64,000 nt of DNA from positions 608,001 to 672,000 of the forward strand of contig CAXXLF010000001.1 in NCBI GenBank assembly GCA_963664015.2. Reading direction: 5' to 3'. Below are positions 22,437 through 29,319 of the stretch, one piece after another (the stretch's first letter is position 1; every line of letters starts with the position of its first letter). Made by a program: the position numbers and the translations under genes. The DNA comes from Candidatus Binatia bacterium. Its GTDB lineage: Bacteria > Desulfobacterota > Binatia > UBA9968 > CAXXLF01. The notes beneath the pieces are model-generated. The model did not search any database. It had not been told where the DNA came from and saw only the letters and a program-made list of their open reading frames with translations.

Positions 22437-23177
22437 ATGGACGAGGGGCCGAAATCGAAGGATACCATCCGTAAGGAGGTTTGGCGGAACTTGAAGGAAA
22501 GCAAGGTGACCCGCTTCCCCGGCGTTAAAGGCAGAATTCCTAACTTTATCGGCGCCGAGAGCGCAGCACGCCGGCTCTGTGAGTCTCGTCTGTGGAAAAA
22601 GGCTAAGATCATCAAGATCAACCCAGACTCGCCCCAACGTGCCATCCGTCAGAAAGCCCTCGAGGAGGGAAAAACCCTTTATATGGCAGTGCCCCGATTG
22701 AGAGAGGAAAAGCCTTTCATTGAAGTGGATCCCAAAAAAGTAAAGGGATCCCCTCTTCAAGCCTCGTCCATCAAGGGGGCGGACCGCTACGGCCGCCTGG
22801 TTTCACTTCAAGAAGTCAAAAAGATCGATCTGATTGTCTGCGGTTCCGTCGCCGTCAACAAGGAAGGTGCACGAATAGGCAAAGGTGGAGGCTACTCGGA
22901 CATCGAGTACGCCATACTCCGGGAAGAGGGTAAAGTCGACGTTAAGACACCGATCATCACCACGGTTCACCGATTGCAAATCCTTAGCGAGCCGATACCT
23001 ATGACTGAGCACGACATCCCCTTGAACGCGGTGGCTACGGATACCGAATTTATTATCGTCAAGAACCGCCACCGAAAACCGACGGGAATTTATTGGCAGA
23101 GCCTGGAACCGGAAAAGATCGAGGCCATCCCCATTTTACAGTCACGGATGGGTTTCGGGAGCAAGACCGGTCAGTGA
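22437..23177 (+). CDS. 5-formyltetrahydrofolate cyclo-ligase family (MTHFSD/archaeal-like subfamily)
   Basis: GRIPNFIGAE, NPDSPQ, GSVAV...GARIGKGGGYSD.E. Confidence 0.8.
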   Translation: MDEGPKSKDTIRKEVWRNLKESKVTRFPGVKGRIPNFIGAESAARRLCESRLWKKAKIIKINPDSPQRAIRQKALEEGKTLYMAVPRLREEKPFIEVDPKKVKGSPLQASSIKGADRYGRLVSLQEVKKIDLIVCGSVAVNKEGARIGKGGGYSDIEYAILREEGKVDVKTPIITTVHRLQILSEPIPMTEHDIPLNAVATDTEFIIVKNRHRKPTGIYWQSLEPEKIEAIPILQSRMGFGSKTGQ

Positions 23178-23611
23178 AAGGAGCTCCCGTTCTTCCCTTT
23201 CTCATCGAGGAAGGGTTGCCGCCCCGTATAGCCATCCTGAATGCCATGCCAGTGGCTGATACTTTCCTCATCATAGCGCCAACACAAAAACACCGCTTCG
23301 CCTCCCATCATACAGGGAAAGTCCACCAGCCCCTCTTCGACCCCCTTGCAAACGCAGCCTATTCCGTTGATCTCTTCTACCAGCGATTCCAACTGTGCCA
23401 TGGCATCACGGACGGTCTCGTCTTTCTGGAGACGATTCAACAAGTCTGGGCTTTCGGGTTCAATACCCTCCTTACGAATGACCGTCTCGCTTTTGCTTCT
23501 CAATAGATCAAGACACTCAAAGATTCGCTTCATCAGGGGCCGCAAGGTTGGTAGCAGCCCCCTAGCCTCGGCAATCGTGAAAAGACGGGGAAAGGCCTGG
23601 TAACGACTCAT
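23171..23611 (-). CDS. DUF2203 family protein
   Basis: FTIAEARGLLP...KGVEEGLVDFP...FLCWRYDE..I.HWH...GYTGRQP. Confidence 0.8.
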   Translation of the reverse strand: MSRYQAFPRLFTIAEARGLLPTLRPLMKRIFECLDLLRSKSETVIRKEGIEPESPDLLNRLQKDETVRDAMAQLESLVEEINGIGCVCKGVEEGLVDFPCMMGGEAVFLCWRYDEESISHWHGIQDGYTGRQPFLDEKGKNGSSFH

Positions 23612-23635
23612 GATACAGGTACGCTCGCTGCCAGG

Positions 23636-24928
23636 TTAGAGACCCAGCCCCTTTTCTAATTCCTTGAGCAGGGAGATGTTGTCCGAATGACCAGTCATAC
23701 AGGCCGTGACCATACCCCGGATGGGTTTACCTAACAAATAAAAGTCCCCCACAATGTCGAGGATTTTATGACGGGCGAGTTCATTGGGATAACGCAGGTC
23801 TGTGTTGATGATCTTATCATCGTCAATCAAAATACAATTGGTGAGACGACCTCCATTGGCCAGGCCCATCTTCTCCAGCTGCTCGATATCTTTGACAAAA
23901 CCAAAGGTACGCGCCGCAGCAATCTCCTCGCGAAAGGACTCGGCGCCCGTATGAATGTATGTATGCTCCTGCATTCCTACCGGTGCCGGGTAATTGAGAA
24001 TATAGCGCACTCCAAAGGTATCCGCCGGCTCGATCGTAATCCACTCGCCCCCCTTGGCTTCTGCACGGTAAGTCTTGTCGACTACGATCTCCGACCAGGC
24101 CGCGTCCTGCTCCTCAATCCCCGCCTCTTCGATCAACCGGCAAAATTCCAACGCCGAGCCGTCCATGATTGGAATCTCGTCGTGCATTTTGACCAACAGG
24201 TTACTGATTCCGTAGGAATGCAAGGTGGCAAGAAAGTGTTCCACCGTTTTCACTATGATACCCTTGGATTGAAGCGATGTCGCGTATCCGGTGGAATGCA
24301 CGTAATGCAGGAGTGCTGGGACGGTGGCATCGGCTGAAATGCCGGTAAAGAGTATGCCACTGTTGGGCGGCAGCGGATGAAGGATCAGCCCCGTCTTCAC
24401 ACCCGAGTGAAGCCCCTGCCCGGCACCGACAACACCCTTTTTAAGCGTCTTCTGCTTTAACGTCTTCTTTGGAATTCTCTTGGACTTCGATGCCCGGGCA
24501 CGGGGTTGCCCCTTGGCTCGCGGGGCGATCTTCTTTTTGGCCGGGCTCTTCGGTGCGGGATAGTCCTCCAGCGCCCGATGCACCGTTTCCAACAAGCTGT
24601 CCAGGGAGAGGGGCTTTTCCAGGAAATCAAAGGCTCCCAGCTTCGCAGCCGCGACAGCCGTATGGATATTTCCATGACCGGAAATCATAATCACCCGCGT
24701 TTCCGGCTGCCGGTCCTTGATGTGCTTCAAGAGATCGATCCCGTCCATGTCCGGCATCCAGATGTCCAGCAGGACGAGATCGGGCCGCACTTTCCCGATA
24801 AGGTCCAACGCTCGAGCCCCCTGCTGAGCCTCCGCAACTTTGTATCCCTCATCGGTCAGGATTTCCCGTACGGTCTCGCGAATTCCACCCTCATCATCAA
24901 CCACTAAAATGGTTTTTTCTTTTTTCAT
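23636..24928 (-). CDS. lpxC: Fusion of NtrX-type receiver domain and UDP-3-O-acyl-GlcNAc deacetylase LpxC
   Basis: REC: VVDDE, LLDIWMP, ISGHG, EKP; LpxC: QKTL...GQGLHSG, TVEH, EIPIMDGSA, ARTFGF, RHKILD, GH. Confidence 0.92.
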   Translation of the reverse strand: MKKEKTILVVDDEGGIRETVREILTDEGYKVAEAQQGARALDLIGKVRPDLVLLDIWMPDMDGIDLLKHIKDRQPETRVIMISGHGNIHTAVAAAKLGAFDFLEKPLSLDSLLETVHRALEDYPAPKSPAKKKIAPRAKGQPRARASKSKRIPKKTLKQKTLKKGVVGAGQGLHSGVKTGLILHPLPPNSGILFTGISADATVPALLHYVHSTGYATSLQSKGIIVKTVEHFLATLHSYGISNLLVKMHDEIPIMDGSALEFCRLIEEAGIEEQDAAWSEIVVDKTYRAEAKGGEWITIEPADTFGVRYILNYPAPVGMQEHTYIHTGAESFREEIAAARTFGFVKDIEQLEKMGLANGGRLTNCILIDDDKIINTDLRYPNELARHKILDIVGDFYLLGKPIRGMVTACMTGHSDNISLLKELEKGLGL

Positions 24929-24983
24929 CAGTCCAAGCTTTCCGTCGCTGTGATATCAGCTATCCAGATATCTTTGGCCAAAC

Positions 24984-27230
24984 TTAGATGGCCGCACCAT
25001 GCTCCCTTTTCCTCAACTCGGCAGTTCGGGCATGATGGGAAACCGGTAATTCAATCACGAAGCGTGTCCCCTGGGGCTCGTTGGGACGAACCCGGATATA
25101 GCCCCTGTGATCCGCGATGATGGTACTCACAATGGCCAGCCCCAAACCCGTACCGTCTTGCTTGGTGGAAAAATAAGGCTCAAAGATATTTTCTCTGACC
25201 TCCGGAGAGAGGCCGCTGCCATTGTCCGCCACTTCCAGGTGAACGATTCCCAAAGAAGGGTCGTAGTTGGTGGAGATCTCAACCTGGCCGTTTTTACCGA
25301 CCACCGCTACCGCATTATCGAGAAGGTTGATCATTACCCGTTTGATCTGCTCCTGGTCCAGTTCAAGCATGGGGAGCTCCCCCCTCCTATCAAATCGGAA
25401 TTGGATTCCCTTATGGCCCTCATTGAAAAGGAAAAGGGCCTCCTGGACCAGCTCGTTGAGATCATTGGGCGCAAGCTTGGCGGCGGGAAGGCGGGCAAAA
25501 TTGGAGAACTCGTTCACCAGGATTTTGAGGCCCTCGACCTGTTTGATAATCGTCGAAGTACATTTGTCCAGAACATCCCCATCGGTTTTGAGTAAAGACT
25601 CATAACGCTTTCTCAACCGCTGGGCGGAAAGCTGAATAGGGGTGAGCGGGTTTTTGATTTCGTGTGCGATGCGACGGGCCACTTCTCGCCACGCCTCCAT
25701 CCTTTGAACCTTTTGAATCTCCGTAATGTCTTCGAGAAACATCATAGCGCCGAGGGTATTTCCCTCATCGTCTCTCAGAGTAGCGGCAGAAACGACCAGG
25801 GTCAAAACCCGATCACGCCGCGACAGCTTGATCTCCCGTTCGATACCGAAGCTTCCCTGAACCTGATCGACAATCTCCCGGAGAACACCCAATGGCTCCG
25901 ACTGGAAGGACTCGGTATAATGCTTTCCCAGTACCTGCCCCGCGTCGAGCCCCAGGAGCTGCTCACCCGCCCGATTGATGGTCGTCACCCTCCCCTGTGG
26001 GTCAATGGAAACTACCCCCGCCGTCACGTTCGCCAGTAGGGTTTCCATGTATCGCCGTCGCTGCTCCAATTCCGTGTTGATCTGTTTGAGATCACGGGTC
26101 ATCTGATTGAAAGAGTCGACCAGCATTCCGATCTCGTCGTCTCCACTGGCACCGATCTGATAATCCCAATTACCGTGGGCGACTTCGTGAGTTCCTTCTG
26201 CGAGTTTTTGAATTGGAACCGTGATGCCTTTGGCCAGGTAAAGACCAAACCAGGTCGCGGAAAAGATAATCACCAAGGTGAAGAGCATCAAGGTCAACAT
26301 GTAGGTATCCTTGATGTCCTCCTGGAAGATGGCCATATTCTTGTGCTCATCGTAAGAGCGCCGAATCTGGAGTGCCCTTTTGGTTACGCTCTTGGGAACA
26401 AAGTAATCCACAACGACCACTCCAAGGATCTTGCCATCGACGCTCTTGACCGGCACGCCGCCGCGAATGATGTCCCCTTCCCCAAAGGGTTGAGTGCGGG
26501 TCACTTCCAGTCCGCGTAACGCGCGATTGAGGAATTCGGACTCGGGTTTAATCGTGATTCCCGTTGGCACCTGGTCATTGAAAGAAGCCACGAGTGCTTT
26601 TCGCTCCGGTGAGAAGATCTCAACCGTGCCCAGATTATATTCGCGCTGCTTGGACTCGATGAAATCTTTGAGCTTCACTATTTGATCACGCTCAAAGAGC
26701 CCGGCCTCGGTGATTCGCCTGCTGAGCTGTCGGGCGTAAAAGAGCGCATTATTGGCTGCGTTCTGGTAGTAAGTCTCGCCAATCTCCACCGAGCCCCTGA
26801 GTGCGTTGCCTATTTGAGCGTCGAACCACTTATCGAACGACTTGGTGACGAACGCTCCGGCAATAAAATAGAGGAGCAACGTCGGGACCAGGGAAAGTCC
26901 GATAAAAACCACGACCAGGCGGACCCGCAGGCGCGATCCCAGGATCCCCCTTCTGCGCTCGAACAGGAGCTTGACCAGGTTACGGACGACCAGGAAGACT
27001 AGAAGAACAAGCAGGATGATGTTGATGTTGACGAGGAGGAAAAAAGCGATGTTGTTGCTGAGGGAATAATCCGTGGAGATTTCCGGGAGCAGGAGCTCGA
27101 AGAAGGCAAAGAGCAGTACCATCAGGGTGGCAATGAGCATAACCCACCCCTCGCGTTTTCTCCTTTTCACCTCCTCGTTTCGGAGGCTATCTTCTAATTC
27201 AACAGACCTGTTCGGTGAAACCATAAGCAA
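24984..27230 (-). CDS. NtrY-like membrane sensor histidine kinase (HAMP-PAS-HisKA-HATPase)
   Basis: AWREVARRIAHEIKNPLTPIQLSAQRL, NLLDNA, DNGSG, FEPYFSTK, GTGLGL. Confidence 0.9.
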   Translation of the reverse strand: MLMVSPNRSVELEDSLRNEEVKRRKREGWVMLIATLMVLLFAFFELLLPEISTDYSLSNNIAFFLLVNINIILLVLLVFLVVRNLVKLLFERRRGILGSRLRVRLVVVFIGLSLVPTLLLYFIAGAFVTKSFDKWFDAQIGNALRGSVEIGETYYQNAANNALFYARQLSRRITEAGLFERDQIVKLKDFIESKQREYNLGTVEIFSPERKALVASFNDQVPTGITIKPESEFLNRALRGLEVTRTQPFGEGDIIRGGVPVKSVDGKILGVVVVDYFVPKSVTKRALQIRRSYDEHKNMAIFQEDIKDTYMLTLMLFTLVIIFSATWFGLYLAKGITVPIQKLAEGTHEVAHGNWDYQIGASGDDEIGMLVDSFNQMTRDLKQINTELEQRRRYMETLLANVTAGVVSIDPQGRVTTINRAGEQLLGLDAGQVLGKHYTESFQSEPLGVLREIVDQVQGSFGIEREIKLSRRDRVLTLVVSAATLRDDEGNTLGAMMFLEDITEIQKVQRMEAWREVARRIAHEIKNPLTPIQLSAQRLRKRYESLLKTDGDVLDKCTSTIIKQVEGLKILVNEFSNFARLPAAKLAPNDLNELVQEALFLFNEGHKGIQFRFDRRGELPMLELDQEQIKRVMINLLDNAVAVVGKNGQVEISTNYDPSLGIVHLEVADNGSGLSPEVRENIFEPYFSTKQDGTGLGLAIVSTIIADHRGYIRVRPNEPQGTRFVIELPVSHHARTAELRKREHGAAI

Positions 27231-27265
27231 TCACACGCCAAATAACCGCGCCAGAACCTCATCCT

Positions 27266-27568
27266 CTATCGTCTGAACGAGGACAGGACATGCATTCATA
27301 GGGTGCTGATAAGCAGGCTTGTAGCCGGTAGAAAATGAAGCCTCCACGGGCTTACGCCGGTAGAATCCTTCCATTCTCCGGCGGAATCCACGGACGCACC
27401 CTCCTTTCCTACTCCGCCGAAGCAGCCGATTCGGCTGCGGAGGCGAATGACCCGAAAAGTTACCCCTTTCAATGGCCATTCCCCCGGTAGATACCCCAAC
27501 GTAAATACCACGCCCATCACGACCAATACAACGCCGATAGCGATAATGATCCGGCCGAGGAGGCTCAT
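27266..27568 (-). pseudogene. DUF2905 family protein interrupted by insertion and stop
   Basis: N-part GRIIIAIGVVLVV...GYLPG/AIERGNF; C-part HFLPATSLLISTL*...FRR. Confidence 0.55.
27336..27455. mobile_element. Short hairpin-rich insertion (IS200/IS605-derived MITE/REP-like)
   Basis: CCACGGGCTTACGCCGGTAG-type hairpin and CTCCGCCGAAGCAGCCGATTCGGCTGCGGAG palindrome splitting a gene. Confidence 0.45.
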
Positions 27569-27587
27569 TCCTTGTATAACCTTTGAA

Positions 27588-28631
27588 TTACAAAAGGTTC
27601 TGTTGCTTACCGGACTCGCCCCTTTGGTTCGCATCTTTACGGCGACCGAAATGCTTGTAGGCCAGCGCGGTTGCGACCCGTCCCCGGGGGGTACGATTCA
27701 GGTAACCGATCTGGATCAGGTAGGGCTCATAGGCGTCCTCGATGGTGTCCTTCTCTTCCCCGATAGCGGCTGCCAGAGTTTCTAAACCGACAGGCCCTCC
27801 GTCGAATTTGTCAATCAGAGTGAGCAGGATCATGGTGTCCATTTTATCCAAGCCACCGCGGTCGATCTCTAACATTGCAAGAGCGCGCTCGGTTACCTCT
27901 TGTGTAATGGTGCCATCCCCCTTGACCTGGGCGTAATCGCGAACCCTGCGCAGCAAACGATTAGCTATTCTCGGTGTGCCCCGGGAACGTCGTGCAATCT
28001 CGGCGAACCCATCAGGATTCCCCTTCGTCCCCAAGATAGCAGCCGAGCGCTGCAGGATTTGCACCAATGTCTCCGGCGCATAAAAATCGAGTCGAAAGAC
28101 AGCACCGAATCGATTGCGCAAAGCCGGAGTAAGAAGACCGGACCGGGTGGTTGCCCCTATTAATGTAAACCGCTTGAGTTCCAGCTTAATGGATCGAGCG
28201 GACGGCCCCTGGCCAATCATAATATCGACCTGATAGTCCTCCATGGCCGGATAGAGGACCTCTTCGACAATGTGGTTTAATCGATGAATTTCATCGATAA
28301 ACAGAATATCGCCTTCCTGCAGGTTGGTTAGTAGCGCAGCAAGATCTCCCGGCCGCTCCACTACCGGGCCCGAGGTCGCCTTGATGTTCACACCCATTTC
28401 TTTCGAAATAATGTAGGCCAAGGAGGTCTTACCCAGACCCGGCGGCCCATGAAAGAGGAAATGGTCTAAAACGTCCTTGCGCCCCCGGGCCGCGGCAATG
28501 GCCACCTTGAGGTTCTCCTTGACCTTTTCCTGCCCCACATATTCTTCGAAGCCACGAGGTCGGAGACCGGTCTCGAAGCTTATGTCCTCTTCCGTCGGAC
28601 GGGTAGAGATTTCGTTGGGACTCATAGTCAT
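27588..28631 (-). CDS. ruvB: Holliday junction helicase RuvB
   Basis: [42 protein letters not shown]. Confidence 0.97.
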
Positions 28632-28728
28632 CAATGATACCCCCAAACCCCGCTAGGCCCCCGCCAATCCCAGCGTACCAGCCGTATCTTGCGTACCCAG
28701 TTGATCATGTTTATCATGGGTCTCTTCA

Positions 28729-29319
28729 CTACTGACTCAGTCGGCGCAAGGTCTCTTTCAACACCTCTTCCAGATTACCATTGCCGTTCCGTACCACTTC
28801 CCGCACGACCTTATCCGACTCCATACGCCGGTAACCCAGGTTAACCAGAGCGGACACGGCATCCCGCATCAGCTGGGAACTACCATTGGCAGTGTCCATG
28901 GGCTCCGCCTCAGGCATCGCGGCCAGCTTATCTTTCAGTTCTACAATCATCCTCTCGGCAAGGCGCTTCCCCACACCAGGGACGGATACCAAACGGACCT
29001 GGTCGCCATCTATCAAGGCCCGGACCAGTTCCTGGGACGGGATCCCCGAAAGAATACCAAGTGCTAGTTTTGGTCCAATTCCATTCACCCCATTCATCAT
29101 TAAGAAGGCGCGCTTTTCTTCGTGGTCCAGGAAGCCAAAGAGCTGTAGGGCATCCTCACGCAGGTGTGTGTGGACGAATAGACTGACCGGTGCACCGACC
29201 TCTGGAAGCCGGTAAAAGACGCTCAATGAGGTAAACAGATGATAGCCTACTCCGCCAACATCTACGATCGCTTCTCCAGGCGTTTTTTCGGCAAGTGTGC
29301 CGCTTAGTTTCGCTATCAT
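28729..29319 (-). CDS. ruvA: RuvA
   Basis: DVGGVGY, HLRED, VNGIGPKLA, VPGVGKRLAERMIVELK, ALVNLGY. Confidence 0.95.
   Translation of the reverse strand: MIAKLSGTLAEKTPGEAIVDVGGVGYHLFTSLSVFYRLPEVGAPVSLFVHTHLREDALQLFGFLDHEEKRAFLMMNGVNGIGPKLALGILSGIPSQELVRALIDGDQVRLVSVPGVGKRLAERMIVELKDKLAAMPEAEPMDTANGSSQLMRDAVSALVNLGYRRMESDKVVREVVRNGNGNLEEVLKETLRRLSQ

Follow-up and report, generated by a model that had tools for sequence, protein, structure and literature searches.

The 64,000-nucleotide (nt) stretch of contig CAXXLF010000001.1 from Candidatus Binatia bacterium that was analysed here (the window) contains a gene in which the receiver domain of a response regulator is joined to the complete enzyme LpxC (UDP-3-O-acyl-GlcNAc deacetylase), directly downstream of the gene for an NtrY-like sensor histidine kinase. 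LpxC commits the cell to the synthesis of outer-membrane lipid A. The two genes probably form a two-component pair with the LpxC enzyme as the output of the regulator, in which phosphorylation of receiver residue D55 by the kinase would set the level of LpxC activity, and the regulator part probably descends from a sigma-54-dependent regulator of lpxC; we hold this view with moderate confidence. Response regulators with an enzyme as output are already known, as is a two-component system devoted to lpxC, and the new feature is LpxC as the covalent output. No paper on a receiver-LpxC fusion was found in full-text literature searches, which mostly do not cover subscription journals, and a term search of the text of 'The regulation of lipid A biosynthesis', a review from 2025 (PMC12444477), did not find 'fusion', 'fused' or 'response regulator'.

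The fusion gene occupies positions 23636..24928 on the minus strand and encodes 430 amino acids (aa) plus a stop codon, as defined by the coordinates of the open reading frame (ORF) and by matches in Pfam and NCBIfam. Its receiver (REC) domain, residues 7-116 (24581..24910, minus strand), matches Response_reg (PF00072) over profile positions 1-110 of 111 (E 7e-35, 120.1 bits, cut-off 30.2) and contains D11/D12, presumably the acidic pocket, D55, presumably the phospho-acceptor, and S83 and K105, whose roles are likewise assumed. The LpxC domain, residues 159-424 (23657..24454, minus strand), matches PF03331 over profile positions 1-266 of 268 (E 8e-81, 271.9 bits, cut-off 27) as well as the lpxC equivalog TIGR00325 (245.4 bits, cut-off 187.25), and the linker that separates the two domains, residues 121-158 (24455..24568, minus strand), is basic, with 14 Lys/Arg and 6 Pro in comparison to 2 Asp/Glu. 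E230, H231, H387, D391 and H414 align with the TVEH, HKILD and GH motifs of Pseudomonas aeruginosa LpxC chains; H231, H387 and D391 are taken to be Zn ligands and E230 and H414 to be catalytic residues. The original prediction, made from the letters of the window, had placed the fusion ORF and a 748-aa kinase ORF exactly here and had read an intact receiver, a Lys/Pro-rich linker and a full LpxC with its active-site motifs in one frame; all of this was borne out, and every motif that it quoted is present.

A whole-genome search with PF03331 yielded a single LpxC match in the 3.51-Mb, 97%-complete genome, namely the fusion gene, so that the second, stand-alone lpxC that had been raised as a possibility does not appear. 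LpxB is present, and the lipid A pathway of this organism therefore needs a deacetylase; as the sole LpxC match, the fusion protein is indirectly implied to have deacetylase activity.

The kinase gene (24984..27230, minus strand) was assigned on the basis of Pfam, hydropathy and its orthologues across the phylum. The encoded protein contains NtrY_N, HAMP, PAS, HisKA and HATPase_c domains, all above their cut-offs, which is in accordance with the predicted NtrY-type partner; the NtrY_N match has 30 bits (cut-off 23.2) and covers profile positions 7-135 of 291 only. Hydrophobic segments were found at residues 30-48, 64-82, 105-123 and 312-330, and thus residues about 124-311, a domain of about 190 residues, would lie outside the cytoplasm. 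The gap between the kinase gene and the fusion gene (24929..24983, minus strand) is 55 nt long, and because a scan found no promoter-like or terminator-like site in it, the two genes are probably co-transcribed. A motif search of positions 23601-27700 found no sigma-54 motif, and the RNA sequencing runs listed included none that contained the stretch.

The continuity of the ORF is confirmed by independent sequences. Positions 23100-27700 are covered without differences by one contig from each of two studies, either of which may be the source of the window. In addition, a contig of 1641 nt from a third study, obtained from a run labelled seawater metagenome, spans positions 23469-25109 and thereby the whole ORF, with 24 substitutions and no gaps. 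Contigs from other studies thus cross the linker, where a misassembly had been considered possible. Because 14 of the 16 substitutions listed inside the fusion ORF of this diverged strain are synonymous, the ORF appears to be under purifying selection.

The fusion is not confined to the window. A search for the architecture in relatives, recommended along with the original prediction, covered 201 genomes of the phylum, including that of the window (G000), and found the fusion in 48 of them, distributed over 21 of 85 family codes (hand count). Short forms (REC-LpxC) are present in 34 genomes, 30 of which were recognised by a single receiver-plus-LpxC match, while four (G105, G199, G070 and G031) were added after retrieval of the loci. 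The other 14 genomes have long forms (REC-AAA+-HTH-LpxC, with a helix-turn-helix, HTH), with LpxC at 51-62% identity inside open frames of 690-837 aa; the 13 long loci that were fetched all encode REC, Sigma54_activat, AAA_lid_14 and LpxC in proteins of 685-743 aa, and the Fis-type HTH is weakly seen. The fusion gene is the only PF03331 match in 45 of the 48 carriers, while two matches occur in each of G034, G074 and G199. About 18 further short-form and 15 further long-form clusters (50% identity level) came from a search of 1.84 billion cluster representatives. Both Pfam domains are present in all of the best 120 protein clusters (68-100% identity to the fusion) from a search with 7,850 scored matches, of which the few named ones belong to metagenome-assembled genomes (MAGs) of Candidatus Binatia or Deltaproteobacteria.

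Key residues are conserved in both halves of the protein. When 39 short fusions with 32-66% identity to the window protein were aligned, receiver residues D12, D55, S83 and K105 and LpxC residues E230, H231, H387, K388, D391, D395 and H414 proved invariant, and the Zn and catalytic residues of LpxC are conserved in 72 fused and 24 unfused sequences. D55 is retained in 70 of 72 fused receivers (41 of 42 in short, 25 of 26 in long and all 4 in intermediate forms) as well as in all 16 free regulators, and W57 is present in all 88 receivers compared. The spacing between receiver and LpxC is 18-57 residues in the short and 252-341 residues in the long forms. Nine LpxC positions (G180, Y239, K247, C263, E300, P314, L367, Y397 and T412) are specific for the fusions, i.e. 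conserved in at least 85% of the 72 fused and at most 17% of the 24 unfused LpxC domains. At one of them, K247, most unfused LpxCs have Glu or Asp, which amounts to a reversal of charge. These nine positions are candidates for a new interface.

The relatives with an unfused lpxC reveal the probable starting point. An orthologue of the kinase is found in 185 of the 201 genomes, with 39-52% identity over nearly the full length and almost always as a single match. In at least 41 genomes, as counted by hand comparison of coordinates among the matches listed, an unfused lpxC precedes the kinase gene on its 5' side at a distance of 32 nt to 3.6 kb, within one contig and in the same orientation. Fifteen of these loci were fetched, and 13 of them have the gene order lpxC, kinase, regulator, with regulator receivers 48-60% identical to that of the window. 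A motif of the TGGCA-N6-TTGC type (-24/-12) precedes lpxC by 30-78 nt in 8 of the 15 loci; the motif occurs 8 times in the 5,334 nt before lpxC versus 5 times in the 114,626 nt of remaining same-strand sequence. The 13 regulators and three more from loci without an adjacent lpxC were examined, and all 16 have Walker A, Walker B (FLDE), the FR(E/Q)DL..R finger and a C-terminal HTH, together with GAFTGA (12), GSFTGA (3) or GAFAGA (1), and thus the full set of motifs of a sigma-54 activator. A pair of kinase and sigma-54 activator devoted to lpxC thus appears to be ancestral in the phylum.

The best NCBIfam match of the window receiver is NtrX (NF051870; 137.8 bits, cut-off 600, receiver only), and in this respect the predicted likeness of the regulator to NtrX was justified. 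However, the AAA+ and HTH parts that complete an NtrX (REC, AAA+, HTH) are absent from the 430-aa protein according to Pfam, and because the free regulators carry GAFTGA, the ancestral regulator seems to have been a true sigma-54 activator and not an NtrX in the strict sense. To our knowledge, NtrX lacks GAFTGA. The window receiver resembles both groups to the same degree, with a mean identity of 52% to the receivers of the free regulators and of 47-51% to other fused receivers.

In the two remaining loci, from G199 and G034, the fetched stretch contains no regulator gene behind that of the kinase, and these genomes belong to the three in which a plain lpxC coexists with a REC-LpxC fusion at another site. 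In both (L147, C232 in G199; L148, C33 in G034) the kinase gene is immediately preceded by the plain lpxC, and a different contig holds the fusion gene (L045 and L030); the plain lpxC of G034 is preceded by a perfect sigma-54 motif. The two genomes may preserve a transitional state with two LpxC genes.

The long forms connect the free regulators with the short fusions. All 20 long forms inspected have kept Walker A and have lost the Asp-Glu pair of Walker B and the RxDLxxR finger (P0126 has Asp-Asp at the position of the pair), and GAFTGA is lost in the five long forms that were aligned with free regulators. Intermediates also exist: P0136 (491 aa) contains REC, HTH_8 (25.7 bits, cut-off 22) and LpxC, and P0123 (505 aa) shares this REC-HTH-LpxC layout, although its HTH_8 match (20.9 bits) falls slightly short of the cut-off of 22. 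Residues 1-127 and 150-483 of P0136 match residues 1-127 (73% identity) and 395-728 (78%) of the long form P0142, so that about 267 residues of the AAA+ domain are missing; similarly, residues 1-163 and 168-451 of P0141 match residues 1-164 (56%) and 451-734 (72%) of P0129. Both pairs have the appearance of clean internal deletions. A quick tree of 60 LpxC domains places every one of the 48 fused domains on one side of a branch with 98% support in the Shimodaira-Hasegawa-like approximate likelihood-ratio test (SH-aLRT), and the other side holds 12 unfused domains, eight of which are from lpxC genes adjoining the orthologous kinase gene. The short forms are scattered among the long ones, the well-supported branches require the label 'short' to change at least three times, and a quick tree of 92 rows gives the same picture; as both trees are quick searches, their SH-aLRT supports are provisional. 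The AAA+ part thus appears to have been deleted more than once after fusion, and the receiver was retained through every independent deletion seen.

Taken together, the following origin can be proposed. Initially, a sigma-54-dependent regulator would have activated, together with the same kinase, the transcription of the neighbouring lpxC gene; then the whole regulator would have been joined to LpxC in one LpxC lineage; and finally the AAA+ ATPase would have lost its motifs, and AAA+ and HTH would have been deleted in the lineage of the window. The original prediction that the fusion arose by loss of the AAA+/HTH part is supported by the long forms, the REC-HTH-LpxC intermediates and the clean deletions. 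Its supposition that the regulator gene had been followed by lpxC is not supported, because in the unfused relatives lpxC lies upstream of the kinase gene and not at the 3' end of the regulator gene. The location 5' of the kinase gene argues against a simple read-through, and it implies that fusion of the whole regulator preceded the deletion. The two genes could, in our estimation, have been joined through tandem duplication of the cluster and a subsequent deletion.

Circuits that resemble the presumed ancestral type have been described in Desulfovibrio. According to Rajeev et al. (PMC3333781), lpxC is the single target of the D. vulgaris regulator DVU2934, and in S. fumaroxidans lpxC lies directly upstream of the orthologous operon. 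In D. alaskensis G20, signals pass from the kinase Dde_3000 to Dde_3003, a sigma-54 activator that targets lpxC and no other gene; a sigma-54 site is present at lpxC (PMC4045070). The likeness to these systems (DVU2931/DVU2934 and Dde_3000/Dde_3003) consists in a kinase and an NtrC-family receiver that are devoted to lpxC, and it is especially evident in the unfused relatives of the window, in which lpxC, the kinase gene and the gene of a GAFTGA regulator stand in a row with a sigma-54 motif before lpxC. In contrast to Desulfovibrio, where the output is transcription, the AAA+ and DNA-binding parts have been lost in the window and the receiver is covalently joined to the enzyme. Because the AAA+/HTH part and a sigma-54 motif in 23601-27700 are both missing, the window system is best regarded as a derivative of the Desulfovibrio-type lpxC circuit and not as a member of it.

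Other known systems are less similar. With NtrY/NtrX of Alphaproteobacteria the window shares the domain layout of the kinase and NtrX as the best model of the receiver, but that model stays below its cut-off and covers the receiver only, the protein has no AAA+/HTH part, and the free orthologues in the phylum carry GAFTGA. Loss of NtrYX in R. sphaeroides raised lpxC mRNA 8.8-fold and also raised lipopolysaccharide (LPS), an effect that the authors call indirect (PMC7240162). CheB, REC-GGDEF and REC-HD-GYP proteins resemble the fusion in that an N-terminal receiver is followed by a flexible linker and a C-terminal catalytic domain, so that an enzyme replaces DNA binding as output; they differ in that their outputs are signalling enzymes, whereas the output enzyme in the window has a housekeeping role in biosynthesis and catalyses a committed step of metabolism.

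How might the receiver act on LpxC? An AlphaFold2 model of the 430-aa protein has a mean predicted local distance difference test (pLDDT) of 89.3 and a predicted template modelling score (pTM) of 0.85. Residues 124-149 are below a pLDDT of 50, and the linker is thus modelled as disordered. Foldseek aligned the LpxC part of the model to solved LpxC structures of P. aeruginosa, A. aeolicus and E. coli with E about 1e-33 and target-normalised template modelling scores of 0.84-0.96. The pTM of the whole chain hints at a fixed arrangement of receiver and LpxC in spite of the disordered linker, because by our own arithmetic it exceeds the value expected for two independently placed domains. A prediction of the complex from separate chains (LpxC, 155-430; receiver, 1-124) gave a score of 0.00 without controls and counts neither way.

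From the retention of the receiver, the preservation of the kinase and the high pTM of the whole chain we infer phosphotransfer from the kinase and an effect of receiver phosphorylation on the enzyme itself. A membrane kinase with an outward-facing domain would phosphorylate D55, and the state of the receiver would set the amount of LpxC activity in the cell, so that lipid A synthesis would be tuned after translation by an envelope signal. The most likely route would be an intramolecular contact between receiver and LpxC as in CheB, in which the receiver is autoinhibitory, a comparison that serves as an analogy only; the main alternative route would be a control of stability.

It should be noted that several observations weigh against this proposal. 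The fusion gene is not beside the kinase gene in 20 of 27 short and 8 of 13 long fetched loci. Adjacency, with the kinase gene upstream on the same strand and a gap of 18-97 nt, is observed in the window and in 6 of the 27 short loci, among them those of all five other members of the window's class, and in 5 of the 13 long loci; some fetched loci are on short contigs with too little upstream sequence for a judgement. For the non-adjacent genes, the pairing rests on the kinase being single-copy and having no adjacent regulator, the latter being derived from four genomes (G199, G034, G090 and G053); in the short-fusion genomes G090 and G053, no receiver or AAA+ match was found around the kinase gene in the fetched DNA. 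The likeness to the Desulfovibrio systems is based on gene order, domain make-up and the descriptions in the papers. As regards the sign of regulation, loss of the D. alaskensis kinase raised lpxC expression (PMC4045070). Furthermore, the fusion-specific LpxC positions number only nine, and among the 88 receivers compared no receiver position is conserved specifically in fused forms, so that an interface with LpxC has no sequence signature on the receiver side.

A separate regulator that could serve the kinase in place of the fusion was also sought. No orthologue was found in the window genome in a comparison with the regulator part of the long form; its two sigma-54 regulators are 34-35% identical to that part, while the receiver of the fusion is 45% identical to it.

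As an alternative to an effect on catalysis, the receiver might control the amount of LpxC protein. Phosphorylation would then alter dimerisation or expose the basic linker as a degradation signal, and the kinase would trigger an FtsH-like turnover. The idea has a precedent in E. coli, where regulated proteolysis of LpxC is established (PMC12444477; PMC3333781), although control there operates via separate proteins (FtsH, LapB and PbgA/YejM) and the signalling domain of the window protein is built in. It would also be compatible with the disordered linker and with the LpxC domain, which in the fusions ends soon after H414 without a long C-terminal tail. A match to the LapB-type zinc ribbon (PF18073) was not found in the window genome, which is also counted in favour of this reading; however, this is a weak test, since PF18073 also matches Gram-positive control genomes and its absence therefore says little. 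The linkers of the short forms vary greatly in both length and sequence, which argues against a conserved degradation signal, and the pTM suggests a defined arrangement of the two domains. Control of protein amount is thus considered unlikely, but it is the strongest of the competing explanations.

A neutral joining of co-regulated genes, after which LpxC would be constitutively active and the receiver a passenger or a phosphate sink for the kinase, is less probable still. The loss of the AAA+ motifs and the repeated deletions indicate relaxed selection on parts of the protein, and the lack of fusion-specific receiver positions would be in line with a passenger. Nevertheless, a passenger would have decayed like the AAA+ part, yet the receiver survived every independent deletion; its four key residues are invariant in the short fusions down to 32% identity, D55 is nearly universal in the fused receivers, and synonymous changes dominate in the diverged strain.

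It is highly improbable that the LpxC domain is mainly a sensor that binds a lipid A precursor and feeds back on the kinase or the receiver, while another enzyme performs the deacetylation. The fused LpxC domains do have lower Pfam scores than unfused ones of the same phylum (about 262-285 bits versus about 290-375 bits), and the nine fusion-specific positions with the charge reversal at K247 could reflect a new role. However, all Zn and catalytic residues have been kept, the presence of LpxB requires a deacetylase, and no other PF03331 match is available for the reaction in the window genome and in nearly all fusion genomes. Lastly, an artefact of assembly or gene calling, i.e. two genes joined by a sequencing error, has nothing in its favour other than the general likelihood of frameshift errors in MAGs and has already been refuted by the protein clusters, the distribution in the phylum and the gap-free contigs that span the junction.

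The level of LpxC is tightly controlled, and proteolysis in E. coli is the best-known form of control in the literature cited. If the proposal of a receiver-controlled LpxC is true, the built-in receiver would be a second, unrelated solution, a direct control of the enzyme by signalling. A more far-reaching version would be that a transcription activator was welded to the product of the gene that it once activated, that the sigma-54 loop thereby became a phosphorylation-gated enzyme switch, that the kinase monitors, in the periplasm, the condition of the envelope or of LPS, and that the relay from kinase to enzyme replaces protease control of the E. coli type; this version is tentative, and its chance of being correct in full is put at slightly below even. 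The evolutionary series, from the free regulator via the whole-regulator fusion with a motif-less ATPase and the receiver-HTH-enzyme to the receiver-enzyme, is unusually complete and would clearly exemplify a shift of regulation from the level of transcription to that of the protein. As the kinase is single-copy in 185 of the 201 genomes, its signal, once identified, would be relevant to envelope homeostasis in the entire phylum.

Several observations concern the surroundings of the two genes and individual loci. The kinase gene is immediately preceded by ruvA and ruvB (27588-29319, minus strand), and the order ruvA, ruvB, kinase, fusion is also found in G110 and G038 of the same class (L017 and L024). 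Downstream of the fusion gene, at a distance of 25 nt and on the same strand, lies a DUF2203 gene of 146 aa (23171-23611, minus strand), which was rejected as a part of the system because it is not beside the fusion gene in 20 loci (L014-L033).

Some candidates were discarded. Apparent triple fusions of kinase, REC and LpxC in G143, G110 and G076 (open frames of 1007-1423 aa) turned out to be stop-free out-of-frame stretches in DNA with a high guanine-plus-cytosine content, and L086 contains a NarL-type regulator gene beside a separate lpxC. No fusion was found among the 80 related loci kept, for which the search patterns had matched generic LpxC genes. A PF03331 match is absent from 10 of the 201 genomes, among them three 99-100% complete members of genus g71 (family f46); such lineages may either make no lipid A or use an LpxC that has diverged very far.

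In L026 (G197:C6), the REC-LpxC gene lies inside an open frame of 658 aa, the N-terminal part of which, judged by eye from the sequence, may resemble thiamine-phosphate synthase; this could be a case of overlapping genes without an intervening stop codon or a further fusion. Finally, in a MAG of Candidatus Rokuibacteriota (G204:C168, L065), an unfused lpxC is followed, about 3 kb downstream and in the same orientation, by an open frame of 214 aa with a receiver 58% identical to that of the window, which suggests that the association of receiver and lpxC extends beyond the window's phylum.

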